64,000 bases of DNA from Promethearchaeota archaeon. Its GTDB lineage: Archaea; Asgardarchaeota; Thorarchaeia; Thorarchaeales; Thorarchaeaceae. Under the pieces are notes generated by a model that was given only the letters and a program-made list of their open reading frames with translations, ran no database searches and had not been told where the DNA came from. Below are positions 2 through 52,634 of this stretch, in pieces. Positions within the stretch are counted from its first letter, which is position 1, and every line of letters begins with the position of its first letter. The position numbers and the translations under genes are program-made. Where the stretch lies: assembly GCA_014728035.1 (NCBI GenBank), contig WJMJ01000079.1, positions 96,001 to 160,000 of the forward strand, in the 5' to 3' direction.

Positions 2-3000
2 AGTGTGTGGACCCAATATTTCGGTATTACATCAGCAATATTCTCTGGGCTTTCTCTATCATCGGAAATCATTGGATCTACTGAGGCGTACTTGAGCACA
101 CAGCAAGCGTCATCCGGTCATTATCGGAACTCCATGATGTTAGATACTCCCTCAATCCAATATAGTATAGCTGCAATCGAAACACTGCATCTTCTGAATT
201 CTCTTGGTACTATTCAATATCGATCAGAACTAGAAAACAAGATCCTTAGTGAATATTCGTCTGGTTTATGGTCTTCCGCGTCATGGACACTGAGACCATT
301 TGCTGGATGTCAGCCTGCAATAGATTATCTTTCCACTCGTGCTGCAGTTAGACTAGAAATTGTAACATCTACAATGGCCGATGAGATTGAAGCAGTTATT
401 ACCTCTCGAATACAATATGATGATTTATGGAAATTGAGTTGTGATGTCGCGACTCTTGCCTTGCTAAATTCTTCAGGATTTAGCGTCAACTTAGAATCTA
501 TTAACTGTACAAAAGTTTTGGAATCTTTGGGATCAAATCCATTTTCAGACGGGTGGTACAATTCTACAGAGTTATGGCAACCTGTTTATACTGCTCAGAT
601 TCTTGAAATGGTATCAATATTGGGAATCAGGACTCAACTTTGGGGCGTGAAAGGATCCATAATTTCTGTGTCTTGTTCACCAACAGTAGATATTAGAGAA
701 TCAATTGAACTCGCTATAGCAATTACGTCTGATATACCCGAAAACAGGTTGGTTGTTCATGCTTTCGGCATTTCACGTAGTTTTGATGATGTGCTATCAA
801 CTGATTCAATTAGCATTCCAATTCCTCAAGAAGCGAATGCTCTAGGCCCAGTCAATATATCTGTCATGGTAGTCAATTGGAATAAGTCACGAGGATTTGA
901 TATCTGTTCAGTTGATGTTCTCGGAAGTATCACGGGAAATTTAGAGGTTCATACACATCAGGTGCTTCCTGGCCAACTAATCAATTCTACTTTGTCATTC
1001 TACTTGGCTGATTCGATTGAACTTGATGATTGTAACATCTCAATAAAAGTTGAGAATTCTACCACCTCTTTTGATTGGTCATATATCGAATCATCTCCAT
1101 TTCAAATACAAACTCCTACTGACGAATTGACATCTGGTTCTTACGATATGATTGTTGAAGTTTCACACGAATTCTGTGATTCCTTATTACTCACTGATAC
1201 TGTGACGATTGAAGCACCCATTGCAACATATATTCAAACAGTCGGAAATCTATCTGTTTTAATAGGTGATAGTGCTACTATCAATTGGTCTCTCTGCTTC
1301 ATGTCTAATGATAGTTTTATCTCAGATCAGAAGGTTTTGCTTTCGATATATGATGATGAAAACCAGATAGTGAAACAGGAAACCATGATTTCAAAATCAA
1401 CTGTTCAAAGCTTTTCATGGAGCCCTGAGGTACGTGGAAACTACACTTATACTTTAGAGTTTGCACAAAATGGGTCTTTCGTTAGTTCAGAATCTACTTC
1501 ATTTATTGAAGTATTTGAACAGACCGAGTTGAGTTGGAAATCCGAAAGTATTGCATTTCAATATGACACTATAGCCTTAACAGGACGACTCACAAATACA
1601 TCTGGATTTGCAATACCCTCATCCGATATCCACGTTCAAGTAACATCTCCAATCTCTACAATTGTTATTGATTCAGTCTATCAAACAAATTCGACTGGGT
1701 ATATCACATTTCCATTGTCTTTGAATTTTAATGGATATTATCTAATACATCTGGAGTATAATGGAGAGTTCTATCGAACTGCAATTGATTTAGATACCTC
1801 ATTGCTTTCATGGACCGATACATCTGTAGATATCTTATCTTTTCCATCCGAAGGTATTGTTGATTCTCAATATTCTATAACTGCGCTACTCTCAGACTCA
1901 GTAGAGAATCCAATTTCTAATCAACCCATCCTTGTGAGAATTACCTATCTACCCTCCTTGATCGTCTATGAAAACACCTTCGTGACAAATGCATCCGGAC
2001 ACATTACGACAGATTGGTCCGGGTCAAGTGCTGGATCATATTATGTAGAAATAATCTTCTCAGGTTCGATAACTTATGGTACTTCGAATTCTTCCCATCA
2101 AATTGAGTTGCGTTTGAATCTCCAAATCAGTTTATATCCTGAAACTAGCTATGATGTTAATAATACTGGAAGTTTTCTAATTGAAGTGCTAGACCAAGAT
2201 GGTTATGAAGTTTCCAACATTCTAGTTCAAATTGCAATATACAATTCATCACATCAATTGGTCTATGAAACCTCTGCGCTTATTGAGTCAGGTTTCTGCG
2301 ATGTTACATGGACTCCTATTATGCGAGGTTGGATGAACTTCAGTGTTACTATTGATCGTCAACATTGGTATGAAAGTGAGTTTGCATGGACCGAAATCGC
2401 AGTGTACGATACTCCACTTCTCTCAGTTTCAGTTTCGGATGAACTAGTAGCTCCTTCAGTTATCAACTCGATTATTTTAGTACAAGATTCTAATCTACAC
2501 CCTATTGGGCTTGTTTCTGTCAATATTGAAGTTCAATTAGATGGGCAAGTAATCGAAACCTACTCAAATCAAACAGACTCGCAAGGTGAAATCATTCTAA
2601 CTATAAATGTTGAAAATCCTGGTGTTCTCTCCATATTCTCAACACTCACTTCTCAAGGATACCTTAGATTTAGGTCAAATGAAACTCAATATGATATACT
2701 TGGAAGTACAACTCTGACTCTTACTACCCCCACTCAACCAATATCTCAGGGAACGACGGTTGTAATTGTAGCAACTTTACTTAATTGGGATTCGAATCCA
2801 TTGGTTGGAAAGAATATTGATATTCGTGTTTCATGGTCTAATGGAACCTTGATCTTCTCAAACATCAAAACAACCAGCTCAGCTGGAAAAGCAAGTACTT
2901 CTTATACATTTTCTGTTGTAGGTGATTACTTGATTGAAGTTAGGTTCAATGGCGACTTGGATAACGCTAAATCAGAAAGTACCAAACCTCAGCGAGTTTA

Positions 3001-5899
3001 TATCACGCCCTCAGTTTATCTTGATGTCACTCAAACTTGCTATTTAGATGAACCCCTTTCCTTATCTATTGGCATCACAGACTATTATGGTAGTTTCATT
3101 CCTGGGAGAACTTTGTTAATTAGAATTCTAGAAGATGGTATTGTAATAAACGAAACACAGGTGGAATCTACATGTGATATATCAACTATCCTTTGGATTC
3201 CGTTGAATAGAGGAGTAATCTCCGTTGTCTTACTGCACGCAGGAGACCTTTACTTCTATTCGAATTCTACCGACGAAACAGTCACGATATACGAATCAAT
3301 ATCTGGTGCTTTAGAGTCTGATACATCCACTGTTGAATTGTTTGACAGCACTGAATTTACATATCAAATCATTGATGCCTCGGAAAATGAAAGTATACTG
3401 ATAGAGTTCCAAGTTCTGGGTGTAGACTTGATACCAGTCTGGATTGCTCAACAGTTAACCAACTCGTCTGGAATGGCATCGGTAAATTATTTGGCTGATG
3501 ATACGCATGGAATCCTAACTATTCGTGCTTTTCCTGTAGAGAGCGAGTTTCTTACTGGTGGAACGAAACAAATCCAGTTGACAGTACGAACCGATTGTTC
3601 ATCCTTTATTGGACTTGCACCTTTCCCTCCTGCTTTGGGTGGATCTGTTAATATTTCTATTCAAGTGCTTGATGAATTCTCAGAACCTTTACAATCTGTT
3701 AGAGTACTGGTCAGTTTAGAAGACCCATATGGTGAACCTGTTCAGTTTGGAATTTATTCCACTAAAATTGTCTATACTAACTCTGAAGGTTATGCTATTG
3801 TTGAATTTACTCCCCAAATTAGTGGTAGCTACAAAATATCATTAAGCTCGGATGGTAGTGATACTGTAAACAGTTTTTCCACCTCTGAGCATAAAACCAT
3901 CTATTGTCCCACCGGAATTTCCTTGCACCTAAATCAATCGGACATTAGAGTGGGTGATGGAATAATCATTTCAGCATGTTTGAATGATTATTTTACTTCA
4001 GCTATTCCTTCTCAGAATCTTACTTTCATTCTTGATGGACCTGGAAGTGCTGGTTTTGGCCCTCTGGATATAATCACTAATAGTTCCGGATATGCTGTAT
4101 TGGAGGTATCAATTCAGGCTGAAGGTCTATGGACCGTAGTAGTAGAATTTGATGGAATTGGAGTATATCTCGGTTCATTATCAAGTTATGAAATAGACGC
4201 AGACTATGGCACCTCTATCCTAATAGATCATGATTCTGACCAACAACCAGTAGCTGAAGTAGAATCTCTGTTTGTAGAGGTGCAACTAGTAGATGATGAT
4301 GATAGAGTATTAGAAGGATTTACAATCAGCTATTTTGTGTATCATGAAATATCTGGTCTTGTAGATTCCAATTCTATTATCCAAGATAGTCAAACTCCTC
4401 TTGGCATTAATATCTCATTCACAACAATGGGAGAACATACTATTGTTTTCAGTTTTTCAGGTACTACCCACTATCATCCATCATCGAACGCTATACTCTG
4501 CTGGGTTCTTGGTACAACATCTGTCAATGTATCTTTGCCATCCAGTATTGACAGGTCGGAGAATCGAAATGTTTCAATTAGAATCTTTGATGAAACTAGC
4601 TCACCCCTTCCTCCCTCTCAATCTTTTATGTTGTTAGAACTTATTTACGAGGAAAGCTCGATTAACATTGAAGACCGGATTTTCTGGCTTGATGACACAG
4701 TTAGGGTGAACATCACTGCACTCTCTATAGGTTTGTATACTCTACGAATAATTATTGAAAGCACCAATGAACGAATAGGATTGACTTCAGAATCCAGTTT
4801 CACAGTAACATCAAATGTAACCATAAATGTGATTGATGAAACCCTATCGGGGATTATAGATGAAGAACACAGCATAACAATTATGCTTCATGATTCACTA
4901 GATGTTGAGGTCCCCAATCTTGAAGTTCAGGTAAGTATTTTCAATCCTAATAACAGAGAGATATTTGGAAATCCTCTCACGTCATATACATTAATTTCAG
5001 TAGAAGCTGGTGGCTATCAGATTTCCTTCACACCGTCTCTATCTGGAAACTATTCAATCGTCATTTCTTTCAATGGGAATCTCTTTTTGAGTTCTGCTAA
5101 TTATGAAAGAACTATACTTGCCCGTGTTCAGACACAATTATCCATTGAGATTTTCAATGATTGGGAATTCGGGGAATCAGTTTCTATTTCAGTAAATCTT
5201 GTCGGGGGTATTTCAAAAATGAAGGATGAATTGATTTTCATATCTATTTATCGTGATAGCACATTCGTATCTGATTATGAAATAAGTACCTCTGCAAATG
5301 GCATTGGCTCGATAGAAATTATGCCAGAACTATCTGGAAATTATGTGGTTATTGCAAAATACCAAGGAACCGATTACTTCGCACCAGCTATGATTGAGAG
5401 TACTTTCCAAATACTTCCTAGACTTTCTATTAGTCAAACTGGATCAACAGGCATTTATGTCGGACTTGATAGCACAATCCATTTTGAAATTAGAGTGGTT
5501 GGTGTTTCAACAGAATGGGTTGGAAATGTCAGTATTGAGATTTTCGATTCGGAAAACAAAAAAGTCGAAGAGAAAACTATCGAGATTAATTCATTTGAAA
5601 TCTTCTCAGTTTCATTCATACCTGAATCAGTAGGAGTATATTTCTTCAAATTTAATGTTAGCACAGTTCCAATTCTTACTAACCTGACACATGAATTTCA
5701 ATTCGAAGCATTCACTGTTCCTATATACATGCATCTTGATGTTGGAACAGTTCCTGTAGTCAGTGGCATTGGGATAATAGTTGTATTTGCTTTGATTTTT
5801 ACGCAGCGACTCAATAATGTTTCAGTAAAGTTACCCTCTGAATGGGGTTACGGGCGTTCTAGAGGTGAAGAGAAAAAGACTGCAATATCTTCAAGATAA
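2..5899 (+). CDS. Giant cell-surface protein (5'-truncated): helical N-terminal region, many ~100-aa Ig-like repeats, C-terminal membrane anchor
   Basis: Frame is open from the window start. Recurrent T-N/D-S-x-G motifs (QTNSTGYI, VTNASGHI, QTDSQGEI, LTNSSGMA, YTNSEGYA, ITNSSGYA) and G-x-Y-x-I...F-x-G motifs typical of Ig-like beta-sandwich repeats; many NxS/T sequons; C-terminal hydrophobic helix VPVVSGIGIIVVFALIF followed by a charged tail. Confidence 0.8.
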   Translation, partial: SVWTQYFGITSAIFSGLSLSSEIIGSTEAYLSTQQASSGHYRNSMMLDTPSIQYSIAAIETLHLLNSLGTIQYRSELENKILSEYSSGLWSSASWTLRPFAGCQPAIDYLSTRAAVRLEIVTSTMADEIEAVITSRIQYDDLWKLSCDVATLALLNSSGFSVNLESINCTKVLESLGSNPFSDGWYNSTELWQPVYTAQILEMVSILGIRTQLWGVKGSIISVSCSPTVDIRESIELAIAITSDIPENRLVVHAFGISRSFDDVLSTDSISIPIPQEANALGPVNISVMVVNWNKSRGFDICSVDVLGSITGNLEVHTHQVLPGQLINSTLSFYLADSIELDDCNISIKVENSTTSFDWSYIESSPFQIQTPTDELTSGSYDMIVEVSHEFCDSLLLTDTVTIEAPIATYIQTVGNLSVLIGDSATINWSLCFMSNDSFISDQKVLLSIYDDENQIVKQETMISKSTVQSFSWSPEVRGNYTYTLEFAQNGSFVSSESTSFIEVFEQTELSWKSESIAFQYDTIALTGRLTNTSGFAIPSSDIHVQVTSPISTIVIDSVYQTNSTGYITFPLSLNFNGYYLIHLEYNGEFYRTAIDLDTSLLSWTDTSVDILSFPSEGIVDSQYSITALLSDSVENPISNQPILVRITYLPSLIVYENTFVTNASGHITTDWSGSSAGSYYVEIIFSGSITYGTSNSSHQIELRLNLQISLYPETSYDVNNTGSFLIEVLDQDGYEVSNILVQIAIYNSSHQLVYETSALIESGFCDVTWTPIMRGWMNFSVTIDRQHWYESEFAWTEIAVYDTPLLSVSVSDELVAPSVINSIILVQDSNLHPIGLVSVNIEVQLDGQVIETYSNQTDSQGEIILTINVENPGVLSIFSTLTSQGYLRFRSNETQYDILGSTTLTLTTPTQPISQGTTVVIVATLLNWDSNPLVGKNIDIRVSWSNGTLIFSNIKTTSSAGKASTSYTFSVVGDYLIEVRFNGDLDNAKSESTKPQRVYITPSVYLDVTQTCYLDEPLSLSIGITDYYGSFIPGRTLLIRILEDGIVINETQVESTCDISTILWIPLNRGVISVVLLHAGDLYFYSNSTDETVTIYESISGALESDTSTVELFDSTEFTYQIIDASENESILIEFQVLGVDLIPVWIAQQLTNSSGMASVNYLADDTHGILTIRAFPVESEFLTGGTKQIQLTVRTDCSSFIGLAPFPPALGGSVNISIQVLDEFSEPLQSVRVLVSLEDPYGEPVQFGIYSTKIVYTNSEGYAIVEFTPQISGSYKISLSSDGSDTVNSFSTSEHKTIYCPTGISLHLNQSDIRVGDGIIISACLNDYFTSAIPSQNLTFILDGPGSAGFGPLDIITNSSGYAVLEVSIQAEGLWTVVVEFDGIGVYLGSLSSYEIDADYGTSILIDHDSDQQPVAEVESLFVEVQLVDDDDRVLEGFTISYFVYHEISGLVDSNSIIQDSQTPLGINISFTTMGEHTIVFSFSGTTHYHPSSNAILCWVLGTTSVNVSLPSSIDRSENRNVSIRIFDETSSPLPPSQSFMLLELIYEESSINIEDRIFWLDDTVRVNITALSIGLYTLRIIIESTNERIGLTSESSFTVTSNVTINVIDETLSGIIDEEHSITIMLHDSLDVEVPNLEVQVSIFNPNNREIFGNPLTSYTLISVEAGGYQISFTPSLSGNYSIVISFNGNLFLSSANYERTILARVQTQLSIEIFNDWEFGESVSISVNLVGGISKMKDELIFISIYRDSTFVSDYEISTSANGIGSIEIMPELSGNYVVIAKYQGTDYFAPAMIESTFQILPRLSISQTGSTGIYVGLDSTIHFEIRVVGVSTEWVGNVSIEIFDSENKKVEEKTIEINSFEIFSVSFIPESVGVYFFKFNVSTVPILTNLTHEFQFEAFTVPIYMHLDVGTVPVVSGIGIIVVFALIFTQRLNNVSVKLPSEWGYGRSRGEEKKTAISSR

Positions 5900-41823: not shown

Positions 41824-43962
41824 TTACTTCACAGGTAGAACAATACGTTCTCTGTAGTTTGGAATTTTCACCCCATCTATATTGCTTTCAAATGGAGTAT
41901 GGACCATGATACGTTTTCCAGTACATGACCTAATGTATGTTTCAAGATTTGAAGCAGAAGAGTGTGCACTCAATCTAGCATACTCTACTTTGCATTCATG
42001 AGGTTCATATCCATTGATTAAATTCCAACCTGGTGTTCGTGTTGCTAAATATCCACACATGATAATTGCTGCATTTGGATTATTTCTATGTTCATTGAAG
42101 TGATGCCTTGCTAAACCTCCTGACATCATTCCTCCACCAGCAACAAGGATATCATCTTGCTCAAGGTACACCTTATTCTTCTTCATACTTTCCCATTTCC
42201 CTGTATAGCCTGTAAGTTTTGTAATTTTTTCAGCTAATCCAGCAACCATGACGTTTTTACTCTCGGTGATTCCTGTATTTTCAAGAAGCATCAGCATCTC
42301 CTGTGTTCTTCCGACCGCAAAGCTTGGAATGACTATGGGCCCATATGAGCCTGTTATGTTTAGAATTTGATTTGTAACAATATCGCGGCTGAAATCCTCT
42401 CGTCCCCAATAAGTGCCATCAAATATTACCGCATCGCAATCCGTGGGCAGATTTGCACCTTCAAAGAGAACAGACTTGTCAATATTGAAGTCTCCCGTGT
42501 AGAGGATTTTTACTCCTTCGATGTCAATGATATATGCTGCACTACCAGGGATATGACAAGCATCAATTGGTGTAGTAAGAATTCCTGGACCAATTTCTTG
42601 AGTCTTACCATACTCCAGAATAACATGGTTCTTGAAAACACTTTCAATATTTTTCTGAGTGAATTTCGATATCAAGTCATGTTTGTCGTACTTTCGAGGT
42701 GGAAGGGGCGTTCCTACATGCATTGCGTCCTCCAATAAGAATTTTCCAATTCCTCCGGTTATTCCCACTGAACACCATTTTCCATCAAACGAGTCATAAA
42801 GGATGGGAAGCCCACCAAGATGGTCAAGATGAGAATGGCTAACTAAAACCGTATCAATCATTTCAAGTTCAGGTATCCATTCCGGAATCCTCTGATTTGC
42901 AACCGACATACCAAAATCAAGAAGGATTCCTCCGGTATCAGTCTTAATCAATATCCCACTTCTTCCTATTCGTGGCCCTCCTAAAAAGATGATTTCAACT
43001 GTCTTTGTAGTTTTGGAATATGCTACGGAAGGGAGAAGTTTCTTTCTCATTTTTTCAGGAATAAGTTCGAAAATTACAGGATCGATTGCTTCAGGGGGTG
43101 GAGGAGATGGAAGTTCATGAACTCTGATTGGTAATTGGTACTTTCCATTAGTGAATCCAGTTGTTTGAAAGAATTCTTTGAGGATATCAAAAGCAGAATC
43201 TACAGACATAGTGGATTCAATTCTCTCTTGTGCATTCTCATAAGCAGTTGCCTTCAAAATCTTAAATGACTGCACCATCATTCCATCAGGTAGCCAATCA
43301 TGTGATTCTTTGATTACCTCACTAAGAGTTCTATGTTGCAAAGCTTCTTTGAGATACTGTGGGTGTCGAACTACAGAATCAACAAATCGCATTCCATCGG
43401 TTTCTATGACCGATTCAATACTCTCTCCAAATTCTTCAATTATTTGTACAAAATCCCGGTGCTTCCATAGCGGTGAGCCAAGGAATCTGATCCATTCTCT
43501 GATCTGTTCCAATAATGCATCCTTGTGATAATCGTTTGCTAATACAATTACAACTATTGCTTTTTTCAGCCATGTATTAATTGGTTTTTGATCTCTGATA
43601 TTGTATAGTGAATACCTGTATGCATATCGAAATTCTTCATCGTTGTGTATTCCTAAGATAAATTTGTATAGAAGTAAAGTCATTGCTTCAAGATATTCAT
43701 CTGTCTTAATTTTCAAATGAGTATCTCTAAGTATTCCATCCATTGTTTTGGCAACTTGTTTCGCATGTTCCAGATTTTCAGGTTCGATACCTGAAGCTTT
43801 TATCATTGCCCATACTATCAACTCGGGATTTTCATCAAATAGATCCTTTTTGGCAGAAATAGACTTTCCTTTGATTGTTTCCTTTGCATCTTCGAGACCG
43901 CTTTCAAAGAAATCGGACAAAATTTTGTTTGTGGTTTTTGGAACTTCTGTACTTATTTTCAT
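41824..43962 (-). CDS. Beta-CASP metallo-beta-lactamase ribonuclease (aCPSF2-like) with ~320-aa unknown N-terminal domain
   Basis: LLDFG, SHSHLDH, HIPGS, YTGDF, DGTY, FAVGRTQE, GMMSGG, LSAH, MVH. Confidence 0.9.
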   Translation of the reverse strand: MKISTEVPKTTNKILSDFFESGLEDAKETIKGKSISAKKDLFDENPELIVWAMIKASGIEPENLEHAKQVAKTMDGILRDTHLKIKTDEYLEAMTLLLYKFILGIHNDEEFRYAYRYSLYNIRDQKPINTWLKKAIVVIVLANDYHKDALLEQIREWIRFLGSPLWKHRDFVQIIEEFGESIESVIETDGMRFVDSVVRHPQYLKEALQHRTLSEVIKESHDWLPDGMMVQSFKILKATAYENAQERIESTMSVDSAFDILKEFFQTTGFTNGKYQLPIRVHELPSPPPPEAIDPVIFELIPEKMRKKLLPSVAYSKTTKTVEIIFLGGPRIGRSGILIKTDTGGILLDFGMSVANQRIPEWIPELEMIDTVLVSHSHLDHLGGLPILYDSFDGKWCSVGITGGIGKFLLEDAMHVGTPLPPRKYDKHDLISKFTQKNIESVFKNHVILEYGKTQEIGPGILTTPIDACHIPGSAAYIIDIEGVKILYTGDFNIDKSVLFEGANLPTDCDAVIFDGTYWGREDFSRDIVTNQILNITGSYGPIVIPSFAVGRTQEMLMLLENTGITESKNVMVAGLAEKITKLTGYTGKWESMKKNKVYLEQDDILVAGGGMMSGGLARHHFNEHRNNPNAAIIMCGYLATRTPGWNLINGYEPHECKVEYARLSAHSSASNLETYIRSCTGKRIMVHTPFESNIDGVKIPNYRERIVLPVK

Positions 43963-43967
43963 CTTTT

Positions 43968-45062
43968 CTACCTCTTTTCACTTTGTTCGTTTACTCGATA
44001 TATTCCCTGTCTACTATCTCTCAGTGATATTCTCTTTGTTACCAAACCTTCCGATATTAAAATTGAGAGGGCATATCGTGCGGTTCGAGGTGGAAGTATT
44101 GACTCTGTTATTATTTCCTTTTGAGTTAGTGGTCCCTTGTATTCAAGTACTTTTAGGACTAGTTTTGCACTTGGAGGTAAATCTTGTGCTAAATCATCGA
44201 ATTCTTCTGTCTTTCTGGAAAGCTTTCCTCTAAGGTCAGCAATTTTCTCTTTACTAAGTTGGACAAAAATAACATCATTTTCAGCCTTTTTTATCGTAAT
44301 TGTGCCTTGTTTGACTTTTTTCCGTAATTGCCCGTCAAGAATGGCTTCAACAGTTACTGAACAACTAATGTTTCGAATTTCAATCTCTGTGTCATTAGAT
44401 ACTATCGTTGGGCGATTAGCTGGATTAATGCTGTTTACTGGAATGATTGATATTACTGCGGCTGGACTTAATACTACTGGGCCTCCCACACTCAGTGAGT
44501 AAGCAGTACTACCTGTGGGCGTTGAAACAATAATTCCATCACTTCCGTCTTTCAAAAACTGTTCTCCATTAAGGAATAAAGAATATCTGATTAGGGTAGC
44601 ACTTTTTCTAGCGAAAATACCTACGTCGTTTAATGCTGTCGGGCCTTTTTGCCCATCAATTTCTATGCTAAGTCGTGATCGGGGCTCTCTACCCCAATTA
44701 CCTGAAATTATGTCTTCAATTAAATAATCGAAGTCTGAAACCGTTATATCAAATAGAAAATCTGGTTGGCCTTTTGACGCTATGGGAAGTATTGGAGTAT
44801 CGGTATCTTCGAATTCAAGAAGTCTAGATAGAAGAGATTTATCTGATCCTATCACCATTAGGATATCTGCGTCTACGTTTTTTATAGAACGATATTTCCA
44901 CTTGAGGGATTTAGCTGTTTCATCCTCCAGGTAGACATCAACTCCTGCATTTTGTAATATTTGAATAATTTCTTTTGTGTCTTCAAGAACTGATACCTCT
45001 GAACTAGCTGAGAGAAATATCTTCATAATCTGTTCCTCACTGAGGGATTTCAATTTGTACAC
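43968..45062 (-). CDS. NAD kinase family protein fused to a C-terminal winged-helix DNA-binding domain
   Basis: ALND and DGIIVSTPTGSTAYSLSVGG intact; GGDG motif altered to GSDK; C-terminal LPPSAKLVLKVLEY.GPLTQKEI...RTARYAL..L...GLV wHTH. Confidence 0.9.
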   Translation of the reverse strand: MYKLKSLSEEQIMKIFLSASSEVSVLEDTKEIIQILQNAGVDVYLEDETAKSLKWKYRSIKNVDADILMVIGSDKSLLSRLLEFEDTDTPILPIASKGQPDFLFDITVSDFDYLIEDIISGNWGREPRSRLSIEIDGQKGPTALNDVGIFARKSATLIRYSLFLNGEQFLKDGSDGIIVSTPTGSTAYSLSVGGPVVLSPAAVISIIPVNSINPANRPTIVSNDTEIEIRNISCSVTVEAILDGQLRKKVKQGTITIKKAENDVIFVQLSKEKIADLRGKLSRKTEEFDDLAQDLPPSAKLVLKVLEYKGPLTQKEIITESILPPRTARYALSILISEGLVTKRISLRDSRQGIYRVNEQSEKR

Positions 45063-45117
45063 TGTTATGTAACTCTTAAATAGAGCTGATACTCGTTTTA
45101 ACTCTCGAATCCGAGGT

Positions 45118-45132
45118 AGGCAATACTTGCCT
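45118..45132. promoter_or_regulatory. Candidate operator between the NAD kinase-wHTH gene and nadA
   Basis: Perfect inverted repeat AGGCAA-TAC-TTGCCT; extra half-site ATTGCC at 45155-45160. Confidence 0.45.
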
Positions 45133-45203
45133 TTGGAGGTATTCTTCGGAAAACATTGCCGATTGTGATTCTGTTAATAAGCCATTGACAAATTGATATG
45201 TAG

Positions 45204-46175
45204 GTGAACCTAGTGGAGAATGAACTCACCGACCTTCAAAAAAGAGTACTTGAGTTAAAAAAAGAACGTAACGCATTAATTTTAGCTCATAATTACCAAA
45301 CCATGGATATCCAAGAGGTTGCTGATTTCGTTGGTGACTCTTTGGAATTAGCAAGGAAATCCGCTGAAGTAGAAGGATACGACTTGGTTATTTTTGCTGG
45401 TGTCAAATTTATGGCCGAAATGGCAGCAGTTTTGTCTAAAGATATTCCGGTCTACATTCCAGCACCAAAAGCACTTTGCCCCCTAGCTGCTTTTGTAGAT
45501 AGTGAAAAGGTACTTGAGATGAAGAAACAACATCCTGATACCCCTGTTATTGTGTATGTAAATACTACTGCTGACACAAAATCCGAATCCGATATGCTCT
45601 GTACCTCCGGTAATGCTCCAGAAATTGTCGAATCATTAGGTGTCGACAAGGTTCTTTTCGGACCTGATAGTAACCTTGCTGAATATGTTCGTAGAAGAAC
45701 AGGTATTGAGATTATTGACATTGAACCACGAGGGCATTGTTATGTTCATAATCAATTTGATATAGCTCAAATTGAACTACTTCGTGAAGAACATCCTGAT
45801 GCTGTTGTAATCGCTCACCCAGAATGTCCTCCTGAGGTTCAGGATGCTGCAGATATGGTTGGATCTACTAGTATGATGGCTAGAACAGTTGCAAATTCAC
45901 CCAAGAAGAAGTTCATAATTGCTACAGAAATGGGTTTGGTTCACCAGATGCAGAAACGAAATCCGGAGAAGATTGTTATCCCTGCTTATGAAGGAGCAGT
46001 TTGCAGACAGATGAAAAAGAATACTCTAGAAAAAATTCTATACATTCTTGAAGATTTACCAGAAGACCATTTAGTAACCGTACCCGAGCATATGGTTGCT
46101 CATGTTCGAAAAATTCTTGAACAGATGAACAAAGCACCATCAACTGTTGAAGTCTTGGTCGCAAAAACATCTTGA
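45204..46175 (+). CDS. nadA: Quinolinate synthase
   Basis: LAHNYQ, VGDSLEL, GVKFMAE, YVNT, CTSGNA, CYVH, AHPEC, GST, CRQMK; start may be GTG 45213. Confidence 0.97.
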   Translation: MNLVENELTDLQKRVLELKKERNALILAHNYQTMDIQEVADFVGDSLELARKSAEVEGYDLVIFAGVKFMAEMAAVLSKDIPVYIPAPKALCPLAAFVDSEKVLEMKKQHPDTPVIVYVNTTADTKSESDMLCTSGNAPEIVESLGVDKVLFGPDSNLAEYVRRRTGIEIIDIEPRGHCYVHNQFDIAQIELLREEHPDAVVIAHPECPPEVQDAADMVGSTSMMARTVANSPKKKFIIATEMGLVHQMQKRNPEKIVIPAYEGAVCRQMKKNTLEKILYILEDLPEDHLVTVPEHMVAHVRKILEQMNKAPSTVEVLVAKTS

Positions 46176-46194: not shown

Positions 46195-46806
46195 TCAGAC
46201 GAAGTAGATTACACTTCGTCCCTCTATTTTTCTTCCTGCTTTTCCCATCACTACAAGCTGTTCAAGAAGATTACTTGCACTCTTGACACTTATCCCCAAC
46301 TCCCTTGCACCCTTTTGTGCAGTCATTTGCCGTTCTCTTACAAGAAGCATTGCGATATCTTTCAATTTTTTTGGTAATTCTACAATTGCTAACGCATCAA
46401 GAGGCAATCTTGGTTTAACACTGTCAGTATATTGCAAGTCTTTTGGAATAATTTTGTCAAGTACCTCTGTAAACTTGTCAAAGATTGGGAGATTCTGTCT
46501 TCCTTCTTGGATATCTTTTCCATATCTACTGATGAAATTCAGCCCGATATAATCAATCAGATTTGCAGTTACCTCTGTTGGTCCATCTGCAATTACTACC
46601 GTTGTTACCTGCTTATGGTCCGCGACAAAAATGAATCTTCCATCAGATTCAATTCCACGCAGGTCATCACCCATTGCTTCTTTGCTAAAACTTGACATAG
46701 CTGATACAAAGCTACTGAGAAGATATGGGTCTGCTAGTTCGGGATCGTAGGACCTACTAAAAACACATACTCCTCCAGAAACAAGCACATAAACAGCTCG
46801 AATCAT
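46195..46806 (-). CDS. Longin-domain protein with C-terminal wHTH
   Basis: MIRAVYVLVSGGVCVFSRSY...DPYLLSSFVSAM..F longin pattern; C-terminal MTAQKGARELGIS...LEQLVVMGK; start set at ATG 46806 after GGTGA. Confidence 0.8.
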   Translation of the reverse strand: MIRAVYVLVSGGVCVFSRSYDPELADPYLLSSFVSAMSSFSKEAMGDDLRGIESDGRFIFVADHKQVTTVVIADGPTEVTANLIDYIGLNFISRYGKDIQEGRQNLPIFDKFTEVLDKIIPKDLQYTDSVKPRLPLDALAIVELPKKLKDIAMLLVRERQMTAQKGARELGISVKSASNLLEQLVVMGKAGRKIEGRSVIYFV

Positions 46807-46807
46807 T

Positions 46808-47596
46808 CTATTCACCTGGAAATTCAGCATTTTCGATTTTCTGTTCAATCTCTGAGAGCTGTTTTATGAACGGTAAATCTGGTTGAGTTAATGCTAACAC
46901 TTCGCTTCCCATGCCTAATGGCACATTGCAATAACATGGTAGAAATCCTAAGAGTTGGGTTTTATTTTCGAACATTTCCTTCACCATATCAATCATACCA
47001 GAGGAGGAAGAAGACTCTAGAAGATTTGGAACTACTTTGTTAAATAGTAGCATGGTGTTTTTGTTAAGTGGTCCATAAAGCTCATCTAGTAGGTGTGCTG
47101 TTCCATCGAAATCGAAATTGTCGATTTTGGCAACTATGATTGTAAAATCTGAAACCACAATGGTGTTTACACTGCTATAGTGTACACCTGGCGCAGAATC
47201 AAGAATAAAATAATCAAATCCTTCTTTCTCTAACTTTTGCTTCAGTACAAGTAATTGCGAGATAGCTTGCATGTGCCATTTTCTATCTTTAGCTAGTTGC
47301 TCACGGATAGCTTCTACATTCGGATCTGAGAATCCAACAAGTAATTGACCACTTAAATCAAATGACGAACCTATGTCCGTAAGAATCTCTGTGTGTTTGA
47401 CTTTTTCACTGAGAAAATCATTGATATATGCAGACCTAGCTGCTATCCCAAAAAGTGTATGAAGGCTTGGTGCCTGAAAATCTGTATCAAGAATTGCTAC
47501 ATCATGTCCTTTCTTTGCCATGATTGCAGCTAAATTAGCAGCAAGTGTGGTTTTTCCTGTTCCTCCTTTGTAAGAATGAATGGCAAAGGTCCGCAT
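46808..47596 (-). CDS. MinD/ParA family ATPase
   Basis: Deviant Walker A SYKGGTGKT, LDTD, ILDSAPG, NKV. Confidence 0.92.
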   Translation of the reverse strand: MRTFAIHSYKGGTGKTTLAANLAAIMAKKGHDVAILDTDFQAPSLHTLFGIAARSAYINDFLSEKVKHTEILTDIGSSFDLSGQLLVGFSDPNVEAIREQLAKDRKWHMQAISQLLVLKQKLEKEGFDYFILDSAPGVHYSSVNTIVVSDFTIIVAKIDNFDFDGTAHLLDELYGPLNKNTMLLFNKVVPNLLESSSSSGMIDMVKEMFENKTQLLGFLPCYCNVPLGMGSEVLALTQPDLPFIKQLSEIEQKIENAEFPGE

Positions 47597-48905: not shown

Positions 48906-51900
48906 CTATGTATCTATATATTTTTGAATGAGTTTGCCAATTCTCGATAATCTAAGAGGTTTTTGTGCCCAAGATACTAGTCCAAGGCCCTTTAATTCTT
49001 CAATTTTTGACCCAAGGGGATATCCAGTCATAAGGATAACTTTAGCTGAAGGATTGATTACCGCTAGCTGTTTTACAAGCTCTATTCCATCCATATCTGG
49101 CATCATCATATCTGTCAAAATTATATCGATATTATCTCTCTCTTTTTGGTAGATCTCCAGTGCTTTCCTTCCATTAGTTGCAGTATATGTTCTACAACCC
49201 AAACGTTCAAGCATTCTTGAAAGCGCTTCTAGAACAATGGGTTCATCATCAACTACCAATATAGAAACTCCATCATAGTCTGTTGTCTTGGTGGAAACGA
49301 CCTTTTTCTCAACAGTTTCTTTATGATGGACGGGTAGGTAAATGGTGAAATTAGTTCCTTTTCCGAGTTCAGTTTTCACTGTTATTGTACCATTATGCTG
49401 CTGTACAATCCCATAGACCTGAGCTAGTCCAAGCCCAGACCCTTCTGTTCTGTCTTTAGTCGTGAAAAACGGCTCGAAAATGTGTGGAAGCACAGAATCC
49501 TCAATCCCTGTTCCAGTATCAATAATTTCCAATTGAATCCATTCATCTGCCGTGTGATTGGTTTCTTCCGGATTTTGCTCACTATTACTGAGTCTGATTA
49601 TTAATTTTCCACCATCTAACATGGCATCTCTTGCGTTTATTGAAAGATTCATGAGAATTTGATGTATCTGTGTTGGATCTGCTAAGACTTGATAATTTCC
49701 GACTTCAAATTCAGTTAGTACTCTGATATTACTGGGAATCGATGTCTTTAGCAAATTCAATATTTCGTCAACTACTTCTCGCAGGTTAACTATTCGTTTT
49801 TCTGAAACCGATTGTCTACTGAAGTCAAGTAGTTGCTTCGTTAAGTCAGAACCCTTTTCTGCAAGTGATTGAATTGACGAGAGATCTTTCGTTATGGGTT
49901 CAGATAGAGATTGATTCATTTGTAGCAATTCAGCAAATCCCATAATACCTTGGAGTATATTTGAGAAATCGTGAGCTAGTCCCGCAGCTAATTGCCCTAC
50001 AGAAGCAAGACGTTCTTGAGTATTTACTCTTTCTTGAATTTCTCGCATAATAGTTACATCTTCAATTACTAAAGCCCATCCTCCCTTTTGTGGTCCTGTC
50101 TTAATTGATGTAGCTACTACTTCGAATATCTTTTCAGAATCTGGTTTCTTAATTTCGATTATTCTATCATCATTAAAACTGAGAATGTCTTGAATTGGAG
50201 TTTCACCAAGTGCTGATAGTGAACTATCTTCTCTAATTGTGCCAATATCATCAAGGTATTCTCTTGCAGTATTATTTTGGACTAGTATTCTTTCATCTGC
50301 GTCTATTAGGATAACGCCTTCAGGAAGATGTTCGATTAAACTTGCTAAACGTTCTTTTTCTGCAGTTCTTAAAGCCTGAAGCTTCTGCAAAACCATTGAG
50401 GTCTGGTTCATGCTTGTAAATAGTAATCGAATATCCTCTTCAGAAAATTTACCTTTTTGTTCAGCTGCTAGAAGAACTAATCCAATAACATCTCTTGACT
50501 CTGGAAATATTATTGGACTACTGATGAGTGAACGTAAATCCGATATTGTTTCTTTTTTCTCAAATAGTGGAGGATTCATACGAATATGGGCAAATGGTTT
50601 CTCTGGAAGTTCTTCACCAATTTCATCTCGAAATTTCAGATAGTTCTCTCTGAGAATTCTTTTTATTTTCTGTTCCACTTCTGATGATATAGGGTGAATT
50701 GGATTTATCATCATGAATTGTTGATCTTCGAGAATAAACAAAGATGCTGATATATCATGTGGAAATGCTCGATTTATATGTCTATGAACAATAGGCATTA
50801 CCTCATCATAGCTTACTGTTTTACTCACTTCTTGAGAGAGACTGTATAACATTTGCAATTCAGAAGATCTTCTTTGCAGTGATTTGTTGGTTTTTTCCAA
50901 AGCATTCAATGTTTTCATTCGCTCTAACGCAATTGCTGCTAAATTAGCGAAAGTTAATCCCTTCTCAACATCATCTTTTGTAAACTCTCCTGGTTTATTA
51001 CCTAGTGCTATAATTCCTTGGGTTTCACCCTCGAGGATAACAGGGATAATTAGTACGTTTTCCAATTCTGCACATTTAACAAGAAATGATTCATTGTATT
51101 CTGAATTTTGGAGGTTGTTTTCATAGATTGCTTCTTGTTGAATGTATAATTTCTTCCTGACTTTTTCTATTTTGATGAATTTCTCAAAAGATATAATGGA
51201 TGTATTCTCACCTCTCCGAACAAGGTATCTATCTTTTTTCATCGATTCCTCTACAGATAACATAACATTTCCCAACATTGCACCAGTTACTACTTTGCAT
51301 GCTTCAAATATTACCTGTGCAATTGATTCGAAATCAGAATGTTCAAGAACACTGTTTGCTGCCAGGAAAAGTTGATCAGAAAATAACTTCTTCTCTTTCA
51401 GTTCATCATCAGCTTTCTTCCGATCTGTAATGTTTCTTGCAATTCCCTCTATTCCGATTAGATTTCCAGATTCATCATAAATTGGAGAATTATTTTGTTC
51501 AATCCAAATGACCTTTCCATTTTTATGAATCCATCTGATAATTAATGGATCAAAGGGAACCTCTTTTGCGAGTCTTTCAAGTTTATCTCTATCTTCAGGA
51601 TGTACTATTTCCATCCCAAGCATTGGATTATCGTAATGGTCTTGAGGTGTGTATCCAACCATTTCTGTTGATGATGGACTTACATATTCAAATTTCATCT
51701 CTGGGACTAGTCTAATACGATAAATGAGATCCTGTGCATTTTCAGCGATGAGTTGTAATTGACTCTCTGATTCTTGCAAGGCATCTTGACTTCTACGAAT
51801 CTCTCTTCTTGAGTTTAATATTGGTGCAATCATATCTGCGAACTTTGTGAGTAAATGAATGTCATATTCTGAATAGTCCGTAGATTTGTTAGCTACGGTG

Positions 51901-52634
51901 ATTTGTCCAATTACCTCATCATGGAATATTATTGGAACCGCAACAGAACGCTTCATAGGAAGGTGCCCATCTGGAATTGAATTCTCCTCATTCTTCACTA
52001 TAACTTTCTTTTCAAGCAGTGAATCTTTCCAAATTCCTCCCCACTGTTCTTGATGAAAAATTATTTTCTTATCTGGCACCTCACATCTATTCCAGATGTT
52101 TCTTGTCATTGAGGGACAAACTAGCGACCCATCGTCATCAATATACCCGAAATATCCAAACTCGCTGTTAGTAGTACTTAGAATGATATCGAGCACATCT
52201 GCAAATACTTCTTCCTCATTCTCTTCTTTTGTAAGAAAAACTTGTAAAATTTGATTTCTTTTCTCAATCTCAAAAAATGATTTCTCTGAATCTATCACAT
52301 CTGTTTTCCTTTCAAATTCAGGAATACAATCAATAGTAATCGTTTCAGTTTTTTCTGTTGGTGATTTATTTACAAGAATAAGAAATGATTCATACCTTCC
52401 GTTTGCATGTAGTAACCTTATTGAAGTCCCAGTAGGTCTTTCATCTAGTGAATTAAGAAATCGTTCCACTCTATGCTTCTCGGACAACGGAATCATCAAT
52501 TCTGAAAATTTCTGACCCTTGACATCTTCCAGTTTATATCCAAGATGAGAGAGAACTTTGTCATTGATTCCGACAATGAAACCACTATCGATATCAATCT
52601 CAAAGCTTAGAAAACTTTCAGTACTCTCTCTCAT
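48906..52634 (-). CDS. Cytoplasmic hybrid histidine kinase (PAS/GAF array, HisKA, HATPase, REC)
   Basis: LAAGLAHDFSN, NLSINARDA, DTGTG, FEPFFTTK, GLGL, VVDDE, TDMMMP.MDG, KP. Confidence 0.95.
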   Translation of the reverse strand: MRESTESFLSFEIDIDSGFIVGINDKVLSHLGYKLEDVKGQKFSELMIPLSEKHRVERFLNSLDERPTGTSIRLLHANGRYESFLILVNKSPTEKTETITIDCIPEFERKTDVIDSEKSFFEIEKRNQILQVFLTKEENEEEVFADVLDIILSTTNSEFGYFGYIDDDGSLVCPSMTRNIWNRCEVPDKKIIFHQEQWGGIWKDSLLEKKVIVKNEENSIPDGHLPMKRSVAVPIIFHDEVIGQITVANKSTDYSEYDIHLLTKFADMIAPILNSRREIRRSQDALQESESQLQLIAENAQDLIYRIRLVPEMKFEYVSPSSTEMVGYTPQDHYDNPMLGMEIVHPEDRDKLERLAKEVPFDPLIIRWIHKNGKVIWIEQNNSPIYDESGNLIGIEGIARNITDRKKADDELKEKKLFSDQLFLAANSVLEHSDFESIAQVIFEACKVVTGAMLGNVMLSVEESMKKDRYLVRRGENTSIISFEKFIKIEKVRKKLYIQQEAIYENNLQNSEYNESFLVKCAELENVLIIPVILEGETQGIIALGNKPGEFTKDDVEKGLTFANLAAIALERMKTLNALEKTNKSLQRRSSELQMLYSLSQEVSKTVSYDEVMPIVHRHINRAFPHDISASLFILEDQQFMMINPIHPISSEVEQKIKRILRENYLKFRDEIGEELPEKPFAHIRMNPPLFEKKETISDLRSLISSPIIFPESRDVIGLVLLAAEQKGKFSEEDIRLLFTSMNQTSMVLQKLQALRTAEKERLASLIEHLPEGVILIDADERILVQNNTAREYLDDIGTIREDSSLSALGETPIQDILSFNDDRIIEIKKPDSEKIFEVVATSIKTGPQKGGWALVIEDVTIMREIQERVNTQERLASVGQLAAGLAHDFSNILQGIMGFAELLQMNQSLSEPITKDLSSIQSLAEKGSDLTKQLLDFSRQSVSEKRIVNLREVVDEILNLLKTSIPSNIRVLTEFEVGNYQVLADPTQIHQILMNLSINARDAMLDGGKLIIRLSNSEQNPEETNHTADEWIQLEIIDTGTGIEDSVLPHIFEPFFTTKDRTEGSGLGLAQVYGIVQQHNGTITVKTELGKGTNFTIYLPVHHKETVEKKVVSTKTTDYDGVSILVVDDEPIVLEALSRMLERLGCRTYTATNGRKALEIYQKERDNIDIILTDMMMPDMDGIELVKQLAVINPSAKVILMTGYPLGSKIEELKGLGLVSWAQKPLRLSRIGKLIQKYIDT

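Follow-up and report, generated by a model that had tools for sequence, protein, structure and literature searches.

Why should a protein with the fold of a nicotinamide adenine dinucleotide (NAD) kinase (NadK) end in a winged helix-turn-helix (wHTH), and why should its gene stand head to head with nadA, the gene for quinolinate synthase? The question arises from a locus in a Thorarchaeota (Asgard) genome bin (4.33 Mb, 98% complete, 8.5% contamination), the taxon of which is borne out by the source names of close homologues. The locus lies in a 64,000-nucleotide stretch of contig C45 (G000:C45:96001-160000), here called the window, whose numbering is used for all coordinates below unless another contig or locus is named. 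We consider it quite likely that the fusion protein, P0001, is a one-component transcription factor that derives from a duplicated NAD kinase and tunes nadA to the NAD(P) pool. A sequence-only reading of the window had proposed a one-component NAD(P) sensor over de novo NAD synthesis; gene linkage, a conserved operator footprint and a second NadK in the genome now support that proposal, whereas its ligand is a part that we infer.

The fusion gene occupies 43968-45026 on the reverse strand and encodes 352 amino acids (aa) from an ATG at 45026. The full open reading frame (ORF) extends further, 43968-45062(-), with a GTG start; we rejected the GTG at 45062 and regard the ATG as the probable start because homologues begin at an equivalent MKIG/MRIG and because the GTG lies upstream of the transcription start that is suggested by a TATA box at 45075-45081. 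On the opposite strand, nadA spans 45204-46175(+) (PF02445 at 1.5e-104; NF006878 at 363 bits, above its cut-off). The head-to-head arrangement given in the sequence-only reading is borne out by the ORF and PF02445 searches, and its 140-bp spacer agrees with the 141 bp counted from the GTG but becomes 177 bp when counted from the likelier ATG.

The first 256 residues of P0001 (44259-45026, -), the proposed sensor, have the two-domain NadK fold, as found both by profile search of the PDB and by Foldseek. A profile of 81 family members matches solved NAD kinases in the PDB at 5e-44, and the best Foldseek match of P0001 is the Pseudomonas aeruginosa NADK-NADP structure 7qvs (E 7e-27; template modelling (TM) score 0.82, normalised to the target). 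The AlphaFold2 (AF2) model, with a mean predicted local distance difference test (pLDDT) score of 86, comprises the NadK fold, a long helix and a winged helix. Pfam finds NAD_kinase_C (PF20143) at 1.3e-19, above the cut-off, and the NAD_kinase N-domain PF01513 at 21.5 bits, below its cut-off of 25.5; all NCBIfam NadK equivalogs score at most 148 bits against cut-offs of 211-493, the best of them 147.9 bits against 326.

The NAD-binding motifs had been read as intact and the GGDG(T) motif as degenerate, and both descriptions stand. In LND, the NE/D motif (aa 132-134; 44625-44633, -), Asn133 is invariant in alignments A2-A4. In the glycine-rich NAD-binding motif TPTGSTAY (aa 169-176; 44499-44522, -), T169, G172 and S173 are invariant in the same alignments, T174 is invariant in A2 and A3 and near-invariant in A4, and the reverse holds for Y176, invariant in A4 and nearly so in the other two. 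In an alignment of 81 proteins, with identities down to 28%, N133, T169, G172, S173 and T174 never vary, and D163-G164, the rest of T169-Y176, G181-G182 and D231-G232 vary little or not at all; NadK structures hold NAD by these conserved residues. The GGDG phosphoryl-transfer motif is replaced by GSDK (aa 60-63; 44838-44849, -), the same position reads GSD[KR] in the Thorarchaeal fusions, and the second N-domain motif of these fusions, G.N.G..GFL, reads ASKGQPDFL. The kinase-like domain of P0001 is probably inactive and remodelled.

A predicted linker helix (aa 259-280; 44187-44252, -), taken from the AF2 secondary structure and of low pLDDT at residues 267-278, leads from the sensor domain to the C-terminal wHTH (aa 283-345; 43992-44180, -), which is assigned from the AF2 model and weak Pfam matches. 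The model agrees with the earlier description of a C-terminal wHTH fused to the kinase-like domain, placing helices at 285-297, 302-309 and 313-325 and hairpin strands at 329-333 and 341-345; averaged by block, pLDDT is 82-92 for residues 281-330 and 73-77 in the wing strands (331-350). wHTH regulators in the PDB match the family profile at 4e-4. The wHTH segment LPPSAKLVLKVLEY...PPRTVRYALSLL...SLRDSRQG is the best-conserved part of the protein in Thorarchaeota, and its LPPSAKLVLKVLEY...RTVRYAL portion is kept throughout the fusion family.

The sequence-only reading had suggested looking for co-occurrence of the fusion with nad genes, for conservation of a palindrome in the spacer and for a canonical NAD kinase elsewhere in the genome, and all three were found. 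Of the 28 Thorarchaeal species loci that include DNA upstream of the fusion gene, 27 have nadA divergent from it (spacers of 147-188 bp; the exception is L025, and L028 lies at a contig end). The divergent arrangement recurs in three further Asgard families, namely f15 (L042, L043), f2 (L045) and the Heimdallarchaeaceae (f5, so identified by source names; 6 of 7 loci), as well as at L041. At the Heimdall loci, the partner of the fusion gene is a nadA-nadC operon. In f20 (L046:666-3052, L047:2914-5272, L048:1694-4080), the fusion gene is followed by a codirectional ORF of 414-439 aa, the L046 copy of which contains QRPTase_N and QRPTase_C and resembles nicotinate phosphoribosyltransferase (NaPRTase); this neighbour would link the fusion family to NAD salvage. 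At L044 (f8), the fusion gene (2965-4005, +) is divergent from NfnAB-like genes (379-2626, -) for DHODB Fe-S and GltD-like subunits.

The perfect palindrome AGGCAA-TAC-TTGCCT that had been noted at 45118-45132 is exact in the sequence, and its core, GGCAA-TAC-TTGCC (45119-45131), is candidate operator site 1. When 28 spacers were anchored on the palindrome and information content was computed per column, with offsets counted from the first base of site 1, all 28 had this site with at most one mismatch and 24 had it perfect. The half-site positions of site 1 (0 to +12) carry 1.6-2 bits, whereas the 16-bp linker (+14 to +28) and the outer flanks carry ~0.2 bits. A supposed half-site at 45155-45160, ATTGCC, is real but is not a lone half: it belongs to a second full 13-mer, candidate operator site 2 (GGAAA-ACA-TTGCC, 45148-45160), an imperfect palindrome one mismatch from the core, the consensus of which, G(T/G)(C/A)AA-N3-TTGCC, lies at +29 or +30 in 25 of the 28 spacers with at most two mismatches. 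A nadA promoter-proximal element, TTGCCGATTGTGATTCTG (TTGCCG.TTG.GATT; 45156-45173, +), has 1.2-2 bits per position, and its run CG.TTG.GATT (+41 to +52) begins with the C that is the last base of site 2.

The putative nadA TATA box, TTAATAA (45174-45180, +; conserved as TTAAAAG/TTAATAA), follows at +55 to +61, always 56 bp from site 1. At the nadA GTG start (~+84), ~30 nt downstream of the TATA box, GGTG is conserved, which suggests that the nadA mRNA is leaderless; on that reading, the operator centres would lie at about -50 and -79 of the nadA start. The putative TATA box of the unit formed by the fusion gene and the beta-CASP nuclease gene downstream of it (ATTTAAG, 45075-45081, -; CTTAAAT, conserved in the spacers) is separated from site 1 by a variable 3-45 bp, and the geometry is therefore fixed relative to nadA, not to the regulator gene.

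Genome-wide, the lone palindrome is no more frequent than expected by chance (2 perfect GGCAA-N3-TTGCC sites observed against 2.2 expected). A pair of sites 28-31 bp apart with at most three mismatches in total occurs only at this locus in the genome. The conservation in 28 of 28 spacers amid decayed flanks and the genome-unique pair 29 bp apart are far beyond chance. A wider regulon in this genome was considered and rejected: the second perfect site (C152:9968) lies inside a coding frame, and the 96 one-mismatch sites show no enrichment that we could link to NAD genes.

Related sites occur with the fusion in other lineages. Both f15 and f2 have one-mismatch sites at the same spacing, and Heimdall spacers carry AGG(C/T)AA-N3-TTGCTTCA. 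The unlinked nadA genes of two Vulcanisaeta genomes have GGCAC-TTC-TTGCC or GGCAT-TTT-TTGCA upstream, with a proximal TTTGCC(G/T)(G/A)GTGGAGAAT ~40 nt downstream of these sites; in these two sequences, the resemblance to the Thorarchaeal operators is at most suggestive of a relationship. Nothing convincing in the way of a shared palindrome was found upstream of f20, f16, f8 and f22 members. As a separate observation, the 420-700-bp nadA spacers of four Heimdallarchaeaceae loci (L052, L056, L057, L058) also contain a conserved palindrome TGTATTG-N-CAATACA, and in the spacers of this family both this sequence and AGGCAA-N3-TTGCTTCA are far from either start codon.

Natural deletions of the fusion gene bear directly on the function of the palindrome. 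Of 27 fusion-less Thorarchaeal genomes, nadA is present in 16, of which 13 provide informative loci; in most fusion-less loci, nadA directly faces the beta-CASP gene, with both TATA boxes kept. A site within one mismatch of the GGCAA-N3-TTGCC core is gone in 10 of the 13. Counted as independent events, with the deletion common to four species of genus g5 taken once, this loss amounts to at least 7 of about 10; site 2, too, is eroded in its left half. The palindrome thus forms a sharp footprint in relatives that decays where the gene is lost, and this co-loss of gene and site 1 is the strongest evidence that the palindrome would be the operator of the fusion protein. Informative loci from g5, g2 and, for the most part, g9 still have the proximal TTGCCG.TTGAGATT..TATA, and those of g10, g6 and L074 have it in altered form, a pattern which shows that the proximal element apparently works without the fusion protein; it could be a promoter element specific to the gene or the site of another factor. 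In Vulcanisaeta, nadA has a similar TTTGCCGGGTGGAGAAT upstream. In genome G155, what remains of a wHTH lies, decayed, between nadA and the beta-CASP gene. We rejected the idea of a stand-alone wHTH that replaces the fusion in genomes without it, only generic wHTH paralogues (35-45%) and the G155 remnant being present.

The canonical NAD kinase is encoded on contig C44: a GGDGT NadK with ITIGGDGTILYT, NEV and ATPTGSTAY that is 23% identical to P0001. In the phylogenetic tree described below, it clusters with canonical NadKs of other Thorarchaeota and is therefore not a contaminant. Among 76 sampled family-mate genomes, the 49 that carry the fusion mostly show a second NadK-type match too, whereas the 27 without it have one NadK-type match or none. 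It appears that P0001 is not the NAD kinase of the cell.

The fusion architecture is widespread. Full-length matches including the wHTH come from eight further Asgard families, and the same architecture is present in Vulcanisaeta souniana, V. distributa and Vulcanisaeta bins (Thermoproteota) and in one bin named Parvarchaeota; more than 120 clusters at 51-70% identity share it, and their annotations include NAD kinase, sugar kinase and MarR/wHTH regulator. The GGDG position reads GDTG or GDSG in Heimdallarchaeaceae, GGAA in f16, GRDR, GRDG or GSDR in f20, GTDR or GTDK in Vulcanisaeta, and GDDN, GSDS and others in unassigned metagenome sequences, the only intact case being the GGDGT of L044 (f8). 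In a maximum-likelihood tree of the kinase-like domains alone (37 fusions and 16 canonical Asgard NadKs, without L060, the truncated P0172 and bacterial sequences), a single branch with support of 100/97 separates the fusions from the canonical NadKs, and L044 is sister to the Thorarchaeal fusion clade. Because of this one-branch split and the position of L044, the fusion appears to have arisen once, with the phosphoryl-transfer motif decaying later several times independently. Such independent decay is the pattern that would be expected of an enzyme domain kept as a ligand sensor.

In the mechanism that we propose, a duplicated NAD kinase would have lost its phosphoryl-transfer motifs and kept the NAD pocket, located at the dimer interface, with which it would sense NAD or NADP(H). 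A helix would join this sensor domain to the C-terminal winged helix, and dimers, or a NadK-like dimer of dimers, would bind the two GGCAA-N3-TTGCC palindromes centred ~50 and 79 bp upstream of the presumed leaderless nadA start. Ligand occupancy would then alter DNA binding, such that quinolinate synthase output follows the pyridine-nucleotide pool. Autoregulation of the fusion gene is likely as well, because its own promoter shares site 1. In three clades, the fourth residue of the GGDG motif is K/R, and one might speculate that it contacts a 2'-phosphate, which would favour NADP(H).

Homodimer prediction for P0001 gave a score of 0.45 compared with 0.00 for the best control, passing a mark that was attained by 20 of 30 proteins whose solved structure is a pair and by 1 of 23 whose solved structure is a single chain; between runs, at least 67% of contacts agree, with a partner pLDDT of at least 77. 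The predicted interface comprises residues 152 and 170-213, including the TPTGSTAY/GGP loop, and residues 170 and 173 fall within it. Such a homodimer, like the conserved palindromes, would fit a wHTH dimer that recognises a palindromic operator. The pass may only mirror the likeness of P0001 to NadKs, dimers of which have been solved. Because NadKs commonly form tetramers whose NAD site lies between subunits, it is conceivable that a dimer of dimers spans the two operators and that the ligand reshapes the wHTH spacing.

In logic, the closest analogue appears to be RbkR, an archaeal riboflavin kinase/wHTH regulator that was first predicted by comparative genomics (Rodionova et al. 2017, PMC5397151). 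Like RbkR, the fusion protein would be an archaeal one-component vitamin/cofactor regulator in which a pathway kinase is joined to a wHTH of the MarR type and which has palindromic operators in front of biosynthesis genes as well as of its own gene. RbkR differs in having the cytidine triphosphate-dependent RibK fold and an N-terminal wHTH, in being an active enzyme and in being the only orthologue, whereas the fusion protein combines the NadK fold with a C-terminal wHTH and a degenerate motif and is accompanied by a separate NadK. Pfam and NCBIfam find only NadK domains in P0001, with no homology to the RibK kinase domain.

As an enzyme-derived sensor for NAD genes, NrtR would be the closest relative in kind. 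It is described as a bacterial Nudix-related NAD regulator with an enzyme-derived domain and a C-terminal wHTH, which controls NAD synthesis genes and is often encoded beside them (Rodionov et al. 2008, PMC2330246). The fusion protein is based on NadK, in contrast to the Nudix effector of this bacterial regulator. The NrtR effector domain is largely inactive, and its ligand is ADP-ribose. NadR and NiaR exert feedback control in bacteria over nadA/nadB and salvage in response to a pyridine nucleotide or niacin (PMC2330245). Unlike the fusion protein, both are bacterial and use other effector domains. NadR combines a helix-turn-helix (HTH) with NMNAT and RNK, and NiaR combines an HTH with a 3H domain. 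No NMNAT/RNK, 3H or Nudix domain is among the Pfam and NCBIfam matches of P0001 at E up to 0.01. Canonical NadKs (P. aeruginosa 7qvs, A. fulgidus 1suw) share with P0001 the two-domain fold, the NAD-binding motifs and the C-terminal-domain dimer that is predicted for it; unlike them, P0001 has GSDK, an altered N-domain motif and ~95 extra residues (linker plus wHTH), falls below every NCBIfam NadK cut-off and belongs to a separate group in the tree.

Repression has about an even chance of being the sign of regulation, activation slightly less than that, and dual action takes the small remainder. Both operators lie upstream of the B recognition element (BRE) and TATA box, which argues for activation; operators in this position usually denote activation in archaea (TrmBL1, SurR, Ptr2). 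Repression would fit the repeated loss of the gene with the core promoter unchanged, the overlap of site 2 with a proximal element that seems to work independently, and the distance of only 3-6 bp between site 1 and the gene's own TATA box in some species. The precedent of NadR, NiaR, NrtR and RbkR argues for it by analogy, and every NAD regulator known to us points to repression.

Among the alternatives, a nadA regulator that senses something other than pool size, be it the NADH/NAD+ ratio as in Rex, ATP/polyphosphate or a pathway intermediate, retains a small but real chance. The computations single out no ligand, one clade adjoins NfnAB-like NADH/NADPH transhydrogenase genes, and several clades have K/R as the fourth residue of GGDG, where it could contact phosphate; the conserved residues, however, are the NAD-holding ones of NadKs, and the targets are NAD synthesis and salvage genes, not redox genes. 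We think it improbable that the protein is both a NAD kinase and a regulator, as the sequence-only reading had allowed; such a protein would resemble RbkR, the substrate or product occupancy of a live active site controlling DNA binding. In the 81-sequence alignment of the fusion family, conservation of D62, the Asp of GGDG, is 90% or more, L044 keeps the full GGDGT and may represent a bifunctional form, and RbkR offers a precedent (PMC5397151). Yet both N-domain motifs, GGDG and G.N.G..GFL, are altered, with the N-domain below the Pfam cut-off, the Asp is absent from Heimdall and f16 members, a housekeeping NadK co-exists with the fusion, as the NadK-type match counts of fusion and fusion-less genomes also indicate, and RbkR is a sole orthologue that has kept its catalytic residues. 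That the palindromes are those of another factor, with the fusion protein a mere neighbour whose wHTH serves protein or RNA contacts or the work of the beta-CASP nuclease, is very improbable: the proximal TTGCCG.TTG.GATT survives gene loss and the beta-CASP gene is tightly linked, but gene loss goes with decay of site 1 and, in site 2, of the left half, the motif tracks the protein family into Heimdallarchaeaceae and Vulcanisaeta, and no part of the protein is better conserved than the wHTH.

Several points weigh against a transcription factor that tunes nadA to the NAD(P) pool. The DNA binding, ligand, sign and effect of such a factor are what we infer from the computed features, that is, the fold, the motif pattern, the separate NadK, the linkage, the operator footprint and the decay of the operator after gene loss. 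The MarR_2/HTH_24 Pfam matches on the last ~60 aa of P0001 are below the cut-offs. The persistence of TTGCCG.TTG.GATT, which overlaps site 2, in the absence of the protein indicates that part of the footprint would belong elsewhere. In this genome, nadC and three nadB-like loci have no operator site, which would leave a regulon of nadA and the fusion gene itself (an aspartate dehydrogenase gene was not found in this genome). There is no adjacent NAD gene in f16, f22, one Heimdall locus and Vulcanisaeta, and in f16, f22 and Vulcanisaeta this counts against the proposed role. Finally, the Asp of GGDG is kept in Thorarchaeota, and P0001 may have residual catalysis.

The beta-CASP metallo-beta-lactamase nuclease gene (41824-43962, -; Pfam Lactamase_B and Beta-Casp) starts 5 nt after the fusion stop and follows the fusion gene in 29 of 30 Thorarchaeal loci, as well as at L041 and L045; it is a probable operon partner of the fusion gene. 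Its product has 712 aa, and the N-terminal ~320 aa are without any Pfam match. On the other side of nadA, the interval 46195-47596 (-) encodes a 217-aa protein with a weak longin match (Fuz_longin_1), overlapping the end of a ParA/MinD-type ATPase gene, and a 1242-aa ORF at 48906-52634 (-), judged from its translation only, resembles a hybrid histidine kinase that has multiple sensors and a C-terminal receiver domain.

In the full-text literature searched, no NadK-based regulator is described, nor any transcription regulator of archaeal NAD metabolism; very probably, the fusion protein is a transcription factor that has not been described before. We also lean, without strong conviction, towards a broader proposal, namely that an ancient, single-origin family of pseudo-NAD-kinase factors is the missing NAD(P) regulator of archaea, and that in Asgard lineages (Thorarchaeia, Heimdallarchaeaceae and others) and Thermoproteota (Vulcanisaeta) it uses what was once the active site, at the dimer interface, to sense the pool of NADP(H) or NAD and to control genes of de novo synthesis (nadA, nadA-nadC), salvage (NaPRTase-like) and transhydrogenation (NfnAB-like). 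The prediction is unusually open to testing, with an operator defined to the base, a single target gene, natural deletions as matched promoters and cultured members in Vulcanisaeta. If it is true, the protein would be a fourth, independently evolved NAD regulator besides NadR, NiaR and NrtR, built on an NAD-consuming enzyme, and would show clearly how a duplicated metabolic enzyme can become a ligand sensor. It would also correct 'NAD kinase' and 'sugar kinase' annotations that could mislead metabolic reconstructions of Asgard archaea.

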